Of a stretch of 11,758 nt of DNA, positions 7,830 to 9,004 are shown in pieces. How positions within the stretch are numbered: position 1 is the stretch's first letter; each line of letters starts with the position of its first letter. The translations under genes and the position numbers were made by a program. The notes below the pieces were generated by a model. It made no database searches. It had not been told where the DNA came from and saw only the letters and a program-made list of their open reading frames with translations. Source of the stretch: Candidatus Asgardarchaeum abyssi (lineage in GTDB: Archaea; Asgardarchaeota; Asgardarchaeia; Asgardarchaeales; Asgardarchaeaceae); contig JBECUL010000061.1 of NCBI GenBank assembly GCA_040225955.1, forward strand, positions 1 to 11,758. Reading direction: 5' to 3'.

Positions 7830-8315
7830 ATGCTAGAGAAGAATAAGAAAGAGCTACAGACAGTAACGCTGAAGCTCCCAGTTGAGATTATTAGGAAAAT
7901 TGATTCGAGTTTAGAAGGCAAGACGCGTAGTGATTTTATCAGAGAAGCCATTCTTGAAAAATTGGAAAAAGAGAAAGATGTCACATTAAGCAAAATCAAT
8001 AAACTCGAAATGGAGATTAAAGATATCAAAAAAAGACTATTTGAGATTGAAAGAACGATTAACATGCGGATCTCTATAAGTGATATAGAAAAAGAGTTAA
8101 TGGTTGTTGCCAAAGACGAAATAGATAGGCTAATTGTAGGTACAATCTTGGATAAGGGATATGTTAAGGTCATGGAACTTGAAAAAATTCTACCAATAAA
8201 GCGGCGCCAGATAGTAAATAGACTAAAAAGAATTGCAGATAAGACTAAACTTGTAAAATATATCCCGCATGAGAAAGACGGTATAACAAAAGCATGGTGG
8301 CTTATAACGCAATAG
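7830..8315 (+). CDS. Ribbon-helix-helix (CopG-like) protein with a coiled-coil linker and a probable C-terminal winged-HTH
   Basis: TVTLKLPVEIIRKID...TRSDFIREAILEKL is an RHH signature; DEIDRLIVGTILDKGYVKVMELEKILPIKRRQIVNRLKRI is HTH-like; SD GGTGA at 7821-7825. Confidence 0.82.
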   Translation: MLEKNKKELQTVTLKLPVEIIRKIDSSLEGKTRSDFIREAILEKLEKEKDVTLSKINKLEMEIKDIKKRLFEIERTINMRISISDIEKELMVVAKDEIDRLIVGTILDKGYVKVMELEKILPIKRRQIVNRLKRIADKTKLVKYIPHEKDGITKAWWLITQ

Positions 8316-8381
8316 TAAGCAGACACAAAAACCTTCTAGTAATCAATAAGTTTTAATATTACAAATGAGAGAATATATAGT

Positions 8382-8469
8382 GAGGGCAGAGCCGCAAGTG
8401 AGAAGGTCCCCCTCCCCCATCTCCTCTCGAAAACGGATTTTATGCGGCGGTGAAGCCCCTTCTTTTTTT
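8382..8469 (+). ncRNA. Candidate ~85-nt kink-turn small RNA with a C-rich apical loop
   Basis: GC-rich island. GGGC-A-GA-GCCGCA (8384-8396) pairs with UGCGGC-GGU-GA-A-GCCC (8443-8458), a canonical K-turn. Inner stem GAGA-AGGU / AUCU-CC-UCUC closes loop CCCCCUCCCCC (8408-8418). TATA TTTTAATA at 8351-8358; T7 run at 8463-8469. Confidence 0.7.
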
Positions 8470-9004
8470 AAGGCAAAGTTATTTCACTTTCCTCAGTCTC
8501 TTCCTCAATAGCTAATAATTTTTCACTAAGACCAAAGCCAAAGCCGCTTCCTATGGTTATTATAATAAAATGAGGAATTAATACTGGTCTTACGTCATTT
8601 ATTATCATCATTGCGATATTAAGTATTTTTTCAGGGGAACGAAAAACTTCAGGAATGTTTAGGTAAACATCCGTGAATACGACCAATGTGTGAAAGAAAC
8701 CAACAAAGAACAAAGCAAAAAATGCTGTTAAAAAAACTTGACTTTTATTCTCTAAATTGAAACCAACAATAAAAGAGGTGGCAAACCACATAGCAGCTGT
8801 GAGAATTGAGTGATTACCATAATTTAATAGAATCTCACCAAAAATAAATGCCATTTGGGATATGACAGTTGTGCGAAGTCTATAAGCTATTGCAATCTCA
8901 GGGGGAACTAAAAATTCAAAACCTTGTAAAAATGTAAATAACATCCATGTATAAACAAACGACATTGATACAATTGAAAATGCTGCGCTTATTGACTTTG
9001 ACAT
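8468..9004 (-). CDS. Hypothetical multi-pass membrane protein with an acidic C-terminal tail
   Basis: 178-aa ORF with about 4-5 hydrophobic segments, SD-like GGTGTGA upstream; ends EEETEESEITLP. Confidence 0.8.
   Translation of the reverse strand: MSKSISAAFSIVSMSFVYTWMLFTFLQGFEFLVPPEIAIAYRLRTTVISQMAFIFGEILLNYGNHSILTAAMWFATSFIVGFNLENKSQVFLTAFFALFFVGFFHTLVVFTDVYLNIPEVFRSPEKILNIAMMIINDVRPVLIPHFIIITIGSGFGFGLSEKLLAIEEETEESEITLP

Follow-up and report, generated by a model that had tools for sequence, protein, structure and literature searches.

The window, that is, the entire 11,758-nt stretch of DNA analysed here, is contig C61 of a Candidatus Asgardarchaeum abyssi MAG (2.6 Mb, 34% GC, 93% completeness, 189 contigs), and the element under study lies between two convergent ORFs. 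The upstream neighbour (7830-8315, + strand) encodes 161 residues with a weak ribbon-helix-helix (RHH) match, contains no in-frame TGA and ends in a TAG stop codon; the downstream neighbour (8468-9004, − strand) encodes a membrane ORFan of 178 residues, for which only near-identical copies were found. Within the GTDB sample the host genome has no relatives closer than phylum level, and comparison with 40 relatives revealed no similarity at the DNA level. As an observation in its own right, the GTPase of this genome has its nearest relatives among Heimdall- and Promethearchaeati-type sequences, at about 45% identity.

Between the two ORFs, a near-consensus kink-turn can be read from the sequence at 8384-8458 (+), uniting both ends of the putative RNA. 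Its NC (non-canonical side) stem is formed by GGGC (8384-8387, +) and GCCC (8455-8458, +), and its C (canonical) stem by six Watson-Crick pairs between GCCGCA (8391-8396, +) and UGCGGC (8443-8448, +). The non-bulged strand (8388-8390, +) comprises A8388 (3n), G8389 (2n) and A8390 (1n) and reads D'-box-like CAGA, while the bulged strand (8449-8454, +) comprises G8449, G8450 and U8451 (L1-L3) followed by G8452 (1b), A8453 (2b) and A8454 (3b) and reads C'-box-like GGUGAAG, so that the D'-like box is located 5' and the C'-like box 3'. The sequence permits all that a kink-turn requires, namely (i) a C stem ending in a C-G pair (-1b.-1n, here C8448-G8391), (ii) a 3-nt bulge, (iii) the tandem G.A/A.G positions G8389.A8453 and A8390.G8452, for which sheared geometry is predicted, with A8388 (3n) opposite A8454 (3b), and (iv) an NC stem. 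A TATA-box-like TTTAATAT (8352-8359, +) is followed by 24 nt up to the first paired base, and one C after the NC stem an oligo-T run, TTCTTTTTTT (T7; 8460-8469, +), begins, the last 2 nt of which are shared with the convergent gene's stop codon. From what is generally known of archaeal termination, this run is a likely terminator. The initial annotation had described the same layout (a GC-rich island, a TATA box ~24 nt upstream, the T7 run, the two K-turn stems and the GGU bulge), and every part was recovered where it had been placed, with a local GC content of 47-48% vs about 33%. It had also held that the K-turn works on the + strand only, which agrees with the GA dinucleotides being found on that strand alone.

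The C stem closes a 46-nt interior loop (8397-8442, +) harbouring a pyrimidine tract, GGUCCCCCUCCCCCAUCUCCUCUCG (8405-8429, +), which in turn contains the mirror-symmetric C-rich word CCCCCUCCCCC (8408-8418, +). At 70-85 °C the two clasp stems alone persist in the predicted fold, and the tract with its C-rich word is predicted to be mostly unpaired at 70 °C. The large loop and its 11-nt C-rich word were borne out, but the inner hairpin that had been proposed to present this word is weak, and relatives do not share it. A strict kink-turn descriptor (Watson-Crick pairs only, C stem of at least 5 and NC stem of at least 3 pairs, at least 6 G-C pairs) identifies 3 sites in the 2.6-Mb genome vs 0-2 in locally shuffled genomes; the window site is the best and most GC-rich of the three (G-C pairs 9/10), and the element is present in the genome as a single copy.

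Comparison with Rfam 15, a check that the initial annotation had itself named, yielded no match either at the gathering threshold or at E <= 10 other than chance rows; among these, a CRISPR-repeat resemblance of 8350-8384 (E 2.9) was judged to be due to chance. The box C/D families in Rfam gave no match at the gathering threshold, and their single row at E <= 10, TtnuCD11, lies outside the RNA (8268-8330, − strand; 11.7 bits vs a cut-off of 70). A box C/D sRNA, in which a terminal 5' C box (RUGAUGA, on the bulged strand) pairs with a 3' D box (CUGA), was rejected since the box order is reversed (CAGA 5', GGUGAAG 3') and the + strand of 8381-8469 contains no CUGA; the same holds for a second (C'/D') motif with 10-12-nt guides abutting D and D' on their 5' side, given that there is a single kink-turn, that only 3-6 nt are available 5' of CAGA, and that the pyrimidine tract adjoins neither box. 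An H/ACA sRNA was likewise rejected, as the kink-turn occupies the RNA's base with no pseudouridylation pocket below it, the 3' tail CUUCUUUUUUU is devoid of ACA, and Rfam provides no match. ARAGORN finds no tRNA or tRNA-like structure, either in the window or at the loci of the relatives. The view that the RNA is neither a C/D, nor an H/ACA, nor a tRNA-like molecule was thus upheld, the defining features of C/D and H/ACA RNAs being absent. Two further candidates were discarded: (i) an Asgard eukaryote-like SECIS element, because the G-A pairs are on the outer helix, the bulge is on the 3' strand and ORF 7830-8315 has no in-frame TGA, and (ii) Cuckoo/CcsR/ar14 (RF02344), for which no match was obtained even at E <= 10 and whose word is CCUCCUCCC rather than the window word CCCCCUCCCCC. 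A literature search for a C-rich, kink-turn-clasped Asgard RNA family retrieved no paper.

Twelve contigs from other samples, reached via the downstream ORFan, are nearly identical to the window, and in the RNA region they differ only by G8380A (just 5' of the stem), A8397G and a one-base shift in the A-run/T-run; being so similar, they yield no covariation. The upstream RHH gene has homologues in other Asgard archaea, and what follows them is an intron-rich tRNA-Arg(CCG), not the element. The search of syntenic regions for covariation that had been suggested failed at close range, but compensatory pairs emerged from distant relatives.

These relatives share a common design, found in Atabeyarchaeia, Baldrarchaeota and Jordarchaeia, which consists of a TATA box, a clasp of the form Y-GA-GCC...GGC-RRU-GA-R and a purine-poor, C/U-rich interior; the window fits it with TTTAATAT, 24 nt, and then GGGC-A-GA-GCC...GGC-GGU-GA-A-GCCC. 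When a covariance model was derived solely from the window, one locus in each of two genomes from one family of Atabeyarchaeia (G011 and G033) came top of its genome, with weak E-values of 0.16 and 0.47. Both loci carry a TTTATAAA box 24 nt ahead of the clasp GGGG(C/U)-U-GA-GCC...GGC-GAU-GA-A-(G/A)CCCC and a C/U-rich interior, and are flanked by GluRS and a zinc-ribbon gene in place of the RHH protein and membrane ORFan of the window. In 400 Asgard genomes a strict pattern retrieved only these three loci (window, G011 and G033), and reversed-pattern controls none; because the pattern was derived from the same three loci, this demonstrates its specificity and does not represent an independent discovery. 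A metagenome pattern scan added one variant (L146), and synteny led to a copy in a second genus of Atabeyarchaeia, in which 3b.3n is G.A. In the reverse direction, an HMM constructed from four Atabeyarchaeia copies alone placed C61:8410-8468 at the top of the window's genome (E 0.63), and a combined model (R2), built from the end-anchored alignment A4, found a Jordarchaeia-type copy (G005) with E 1.3e-3 and a Baldrarchaeota-type copy (G028) with E 0.09.

When all GTDB species were scanned for the core word together with the kink-turn's 3' half, nine loci in archaea came up alongside about 28 chance matches in bacteria. Two of the nine are labelled Baldrarchaeota and a third, labelled 'uncultured archaeon', has a Baldrarchaeota-type sequence; three are labelled Jordarchaeia and one, labelled 'Thermoproteota', is of Jordarchaeia type; the remaining two belong to the already known Atabeyarchaeia group (Atabeyarchaeum deiterrae and MAG LC30). 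Loci with the design comprise G011, G033, L146, G022, G005, G028, two more of Baldrarchaeota type and four of Jordarchaeia type. All relatives examined possess a TATA box (TTTATAAA, TTTATATT, TTTAAATA, TTTATATA or similar) located 21-26 nt 5' of the NC stem. This box was left out of the covariance and HMM models (R1, R2 and the Atabeyarchaeia HMM) and of the all-species scan, and was included only in the metagenome pattern that found L146.

The GA dinucleotides and L3 = U are invariant in all 13 copies, and -1b.-1n is C-G in every relative. Position 3b.3n varies (A.A, A-U, G-C, G.U, G.A) and covaries as U/A, C/G and U/G, the first three C-stem pairs are kept in nearly all relatives, and the Baldrarchaeota copies exhibit a perfect 10-bp C stem. 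In alignment A4, 88% of the stem cells are paired vs 80.5% in shuffles (a value reached by 4 of 500) and 28-50% after sliding of the partner column, and two pairs change in a compensatory manner: 4-111, the fourth NC pair, is C-G in three sequences and U-A in three, and 11-101, the fourth C-stem pair, is A-U vs G-C. Each single cross-lineage E-value is in itself non-significant, so that homology between the window and the other copies rests on reciprocal top rank combined with shared architecture. From these sequence comparisons we conclude that the window copy is best regarded as a divergent member of a real, hitherto uncatalogued Asgard RNA family. The suggestion that the locus encodes an L7Ae-type kink-turn RNA of an unrecognised class consequently gains support from the blank Rfam result, the conserved kink-turn, the compensatory changes in three other Asgard classes and the L7Ae-family genes of the genome, with the binding itself being expected.

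The relatives also bear on whether the element is a gene at all. It could instead be a structured 3' UTR, or a bidirectional terminator of 7830-8315 (+) and 8468-9004 (−), in which a kink-turn-like sequence arose by chance; the position between convergent genes would suit such a role, a T7 run behind a GC-rich stem resembles a terminator, and in nearest-neighbour folding, which is unable to score a kink-turn, the + strand is no better than its shuffles (z +0.86), whereas the − strand is more stable (z -1.88). Yet the same clasp with an equally spaced TATA box recurs in unrelated gene contexts, and three features that never vary, namely the GA dinucleotides, the U at L3 and C-G at -1b.-1n, are confined to the + strand. 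Since the upstream-gene homologues precede tRNA-Arg(CCG) elsewhere in Asgard archaea, and since the RNA recurs with its own promoter in other contexts, the element is very probably not the 3' UTR of its neighbour, and we regard this explanation as very improbable. What the comparisons establish is that the motif is there and conserved, that the promoter lies at a constant spacing of 21-26 nt and that the element does not depend on the neighbouring genes. The element is very probably a separately transcribed small RNA gene, and we hold with high confidence that it is a real, independent kink-turn sRNA gene belonging to a conserved family.

The interior is where the window copy departs from its relatives. 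In the other lineages it is nearly purine-free, with CGCCCUCCUCCCC-type words at the same place as the window tract. The window carries CCCCCUCCCCC where other members carry CCCUCCUCCCC: its interior reads GGUCCCCCUCCCCCAUCUCCUCUCGA (UCCCCCUCCCCC...CUCUCGA) instead of the family core word, the position being the same and the word different, and most of the differences are C<->U changes. Within Atabeyarchaeia, a 33-nt interior tract is identical between genera, whereas the neighbouring protein is just 53% identical. The Atabeyarchaeia-1 copy contains, in addition, a 30-nt insertion whose predicted fold is a 4-bp helix (CCCU/AGGG) with a 3-nt bulge on either side (CCA and AAU), and cuts 2 nt into each bulge recreate the conserved word exactly; on this basis, the insertion is a relaxed bulge-helix-bulge motif.

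How might such an RNA work? We propose a stand-alone transcript of about 80 nt, extending from roughly 8381-8384 to roughly 8465 (+), which would be transcribed from its own TATA promoter and end at the T7 run. Its kink-turn, in D'/C' orientation, would clamp the 5' and 3' ends and would be expected to be bound and stabilised by L7Ae; the clamp would leave the 46-nt purine-poor interior open, and the exposed C/U-rich tract could then pair as an antisense element with G-rich single-stranded RNA. Candidate targets would be GGAGG-type ribosome-binding regions of particular mRNAs or, as in the sister lineages described below, a structured G-rich partner RNA. The genome contains two L7Ae-family genes (C16:22870-23142 and C33:1498-1770) and uses ribosome-binding sites of GGAGGTG type about 6-12 nt ahead of its starts, which makes an L7Ae-stabilised RNA with a C-rich antisense word plausible. 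For the full reading, that is, an L7Ae-stabilised kink-turn sRNA gene of the family acting by an antisense mechanism, we estimate a probability of roughly 0.55.

The possibility that the CCUCC in the loop masks Shine-Dalgarno sequences had been raised before, along with a particular target, the ribosome-binding site of the nearby rio2 gene. The general idea is plausible only: sites of GGAGGTG type are indeed used, but the loop prefers GGGGGAGGGGG and not GGAGGUGA. The rio2 site itself is not supported as a target, as its duplex with the loop (-9.5 kcal/mol) ranks 1046 of 2041 start regions, that is, at about the median gene, and the proximity to rio2 is not kept in relatives; a reversed-loop control is not informative in this case, given the near mirror symmetry of the loop. 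Across the window's genome no target site offers more than 12 contiguous pairs, and the best duplexes involve a poly-G run antisense to poly-proline codons (C73), stretches of coding sequence and a G-rich repeat that exists in multiple copies. The best candidate for a partner RNA in this genome, C82:4862-4951, lies directly after a stop codon and combines two stems, of 9 and 7 bp, with the loop UGGGGAGGGAGGGGAGAU; its complementarity is weak, being equalled by 22/300 shuffles.

In the sister lineages, separate and structured G-rich RNAs exist that contain 15-19-nt perfect complements to the C-rich RNA. Those of Atabeyarchaeia (G011 and G022; GGGCAGG...CCUGCCCGC with GGGCGAGGAAGAGGG(AA)) have complements of 15-18 nt and their own TATTTAAG box, and belong to no Rfam family. 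The Baldrarchaeota G-rich RNA (G028; GGUGGGCUCG...CGAGCC) provides a 19-nt complement and has homologues in two further Baldrarchaeota genomes. In both G005 and the Jordarchaeia-type MAG S9B3_HD70 (G404), the Jordarchaeia G-rich RNA, with a 15-bp stem and repeated GGGGAGGAGGG, immediately follows a lipoate-ligase gene, at a distance of about 6 kb from the C-rich RNA. When the energy of each cognate duplex was compared with those of 300 composition-preserving shuffles of the G-rich RNA, the number of shuffles that matched or beat it was 0 for G022 and G028, 1 for G005, 3 for G401, 5 for G402, 9 for G404 and 12 for G011. A cross-lineage duplex matrix showed no cognate preference, with the most G-rich RNAs pairing best with every C-rich RNA; the pairing of the two RNAs may thus be generic, as expected between C-rich and G-rich sequences of low complexity, and lineage-specific co-evolution is not seen in this matrix.

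It is tempting to speculate that the C-rich RNA and the separately encoded, stem-clamped G-rich RNA constitute a dedicated Asgard two-RNA system. The two might act as anti-Shine-Dalgarno and Shine-Dalgarno mimics, cancelling each other out and thereby adjusting how translation is initiated, or might assemble, on an L7Ae-bound kink-turn, into a particle of two base-paired RNAs with a loose likeness to U4/U6; the tRNA-splicing endonuclease might, in some lineages, process the C-rich RNA to its mature form. We consider this scenario decidedly unlikely. A protein-based role of the tract deserves comparison with the antisense mechanism as well. The L7Ae clasp might only stabilise the RNA, with the polypyrimidine loop binding a protein specific for C/U-rich RNA (KH-type, or a handler of the CCUCC 3' end of 16S rRNA) which it would titrate or deliver. 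A near purine-free interior in Jordarchaeia, Baldrarchaeota and Atabeyarchaeia and a word invariant across genera would be equally compatible with binding by a protein and with antisense pairing, and the missing lineage-specific matching of the G-rich RNAs, together with the lack of a single convincing RNA target in the window's genome, points in the same direction. However, synteny links no candidate protein to the RNA, the 15-19-nt perfect complements in the separate G022 and G028 RNAs are unlikely to occur by chance (0/300 shuffles each), and C<->U exchanges, tolerated in pairing with G-rich RNA, account for nearly all lineage differences in the word. We therefore rate such a decoy or scaffold as rather unlikely.

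The likeness of the clasp to box C/D motifs raises one more alternative, namely that of an atypical modification guide. In such a half-sized box C/D-like RNA, the D'/C'-type kink-turn would recruit L7Ae along with Nop5/fibrillarin or another enzyme, and the C-rich tract would pick out, for modification, a G-rich site of an rRNA, a tRNA or some other RNA. CAGA and GGUGAAG are indeed near D' CUGA and C' UGAUGA, L3 is U as in C/D boxes, and archaeal C/D RNPs use L7Ae (PMC6009581, PMC5062973). Against this, there is one kink-turn only and the terminal C/D pair is absent; the tract is separated by 17 nt from CAGA and by 22 nt from GUGAAG, so that it is not box-adjacent as guides must be. Moreover, no rRNA complementarity exceeds 11 nt, G.U pairs counted, in the single complete genome of a relative that was compared, which is from Atabeyarchaeia, the MAG of the window itself having no assembled 16S or 23S rRNA. 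A guide function thus appears improbable, and the antisense reading remains the one we prefer.

Regulatory RNAs are almost unexplored in Asgard archaea, the nearest known prokaryotic kin of eukaryotes. The family appears conserved in at least four Asgard lineages and joins an L7Ae-type kink-turn, the motif on which snoRNPs and the U4 snRNP are built, to an exposed, putatively antisense C-rich word. As a divergent thermophilic member, the window copy helps to separate the essentials (clasp, promoter spacing and pyrimidine loop) from the variable word.

Among known systems, U4 snRNA offers a remote parallel. In its 5' stem-loop, the bulged strand is located 5', the NC stem is loop-capped, and a partner RNA is base-paired. 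The Asgard family shares with it the AAU/GAU-type bulge and, in the Baldrarchaeota and Jordarchaeia copies, a Watson-Crick 3b.3n pair, but the orientation is opposite and there is neither an Sm site nor a spliceosomal context, so that we regard this as a resemblance only. RoxS/RsaE and, among archaea, sRNA41 of Methanosarcina mazei are further analogues with C-rich anti-Shine-Dalgarno words. Bacterial Cuckoo/CcsR/ar14 (RF02344) likewise exposes a CCUCC-containing C-rich word able to pair with GGAGG, and the word of CcsR, CCUCCUCCC, recurs within the family core CCCUCCUCCCC; those RNAs, however, display the word in small hairpin loops and possess no kink-turn, and target masking by the window RNA is putative.

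Asgard eukaryote-like SECIS elements are comparable in that a kink-turn RNA with a GA/GA quartet directly follows a gene in an Asgard genome (PMC11227280). According to their model, a 5'-[A/G]UGA...[G/A]A-3' quartet is located at the base of a 7-15-bp upper stem, with unpaired A's in the apical loop, in the 3' UTR of a UGA-containing gene (PMC11227280). The topology of the window RNA is inverted relative to this arrangement: the SECIS quartet is placed on the upper inner helix with AUGA on the 5' strand, and the window RNA lacks the AAR loop motif.

Closer in kind are the orphan L7Ae-binding kink-turn sRNAs sRkB, sRkC and sRk52 of Pyrococcus abyssi (PMC3124441), to which L7Ae RIP-seq in Sulfolobus has added further orphan L7Ae-bound kink-turn sRNAs (PMC5539422). 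The window RNA resembles these independently expressed sRNAs, as it is small, GC-rich in an AT-rich thermophile and probably expressed on its own, and carries a kink-turn or K-loop with neither C/D nor H/ACA guide architecture (PMC3124441, PMC5539422). In contrast, sRkB and sRkC are about 210 nt long, contain two kink-turns and derive from the 3' ends of IS200/IS605 OrfB genes (PMC3124441). The window RNA bears no sequence relation to the sRk RNAs, and is about 80 nt long and single-copy, with one kink-turn clamping both ends and a conserved polypyrimidine interior.

A structural counterpart of the clasp itself is the internal C'/D' motif of archaeal box C/D sRNAs, with which it shares the strand order, the box-like CAGA/GGUGAAG, the U at L3, the tandem G-A pairs and L7Ae as the expected ligand (PMC6009581, PMC1635284). 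The window RNA differs from it in being devoid of a terminal C/D pair, of a second motif and of a 12-nt guide abutting a box, and in having a 46-nt loop where the internal motif has a 3-9-nt K-loop. If our reading holds true, the family would represent a new archaeal use of the kink-turn, which would serve as the clamp of a trans-acting regulator instead of as a part of a modification guide.

The gene upstream of the kink-turn RNA (window 7830–8315, + strand) encodes an RHH-like protein of 161 amino acids, and a single-copy homologue occurs in 125 of 400 genomes, spread over many Asgard families. Of the 19 loci inspected in relatives (L065–L083), most have a tRNA-Arg(CCG) gene downstream of this gene in the same orientation; in several of them the tRNA gene carries at least one intron, the T-arm being among the positions interrupted. 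In the source genome, tRNA-Arg(CCG) is located away from the RHH-like gene, at C63:167–244, and the slot downstream of the latter is occupied by the kink-turn RNA. The promoter region of this RNA (window 8350–8384, + strand) weakly matches RF01361, a model of CRISPR repeats (16.5 bits, E-value 2.9); we judge this match to be due to chance.

G-rich structured RNAs of uncatalogued type, with a GC-rich terminal stem and a GGGAGG-type tract, were located at seven loci drawn from Atabeyarchaeia, Baldrarchaeota and Jordarchaeia, that is, L157:1430–1535, L160:1432–1533 and L233:1492–1607 on the minus strand, and L174:1467–1549, L217:1445–1548, L175:1472–1596 and L231:1463–1579 on the plus strand. At all seven, the exposed tract shows complementarity to the genome's own C-rich RNA, and the G-rich RNAs are conserved within each of the three classes. 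An Rfam search with the two Atabeyarchaeia loci yielded no match.

In the source genome, a 90-nt element lies directly 3' of a stop codon (C82:4862–4951, + strand), comprises a 9-bp outer stem (GGGUGGGUG/CACCCACCC), a 7-bp inner stem and the loop UGGGGAGGGAGGGGAGAU, and is followed by T-runs. It may represent a 3'-UTR-derived G-rich RNA that is the analogue of those in the sister lineages. The same genome contains a multi-copy G-rich repeat (...GGGGGAUGAAUGCGGUCUGGGAGGGAGGGGGCUGGGUGGUGGGAAC...; C32:24607–24644, C68:31–45, C148:2591–2605, C101:5901–5946, C77:97–132, C106:113–149 and C136:3638–3670), which is one of the better partners predicted in silico for the C-rich loop. Separately, 14 consecutive C residues on the coding strand near a gene start (C73:1308–1340) would be translated as a stretch of prolines (ATG GAT GAT ... 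ACC CCC CCC CCC CCC ACC); they are either a real slippage-prone homopolymer tract or an assembly artefact.

ARAGORN predicts 43 tRNA genes in the whole source genome, 18 of them with introns. The latter include a tRNA-SeC(tca) prediction, which may reflect selenocysteine usage in this organism or may be spurious. In the complete Atabeyarchaeia-1 genome, the 16S rRNA gene (L100; G011:C1:448464–450889) spans 2426 nt compared with 1478 model positions, and therefore contains ∼950 nt of inserted sequence; near its 3' end, the sequence after GUAGCCGUA deviates from the usual ...GGAUCACCUCCU ending. The Atabeyarchaeia-1 copy of the C-rich RNA (L090:1512–1622, − strand) is interrupted by 30 nt placed within its most conserved word. 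Since the predicted fold of this insertion is a 4-bp helix between two 3-nt bulges, and symmetric cuts in the bulges would restore the word, the insertion looks like a relaxed bulge-helix-bulge intron of the tRNA type, residing within a small RNA that is not a tRNA.
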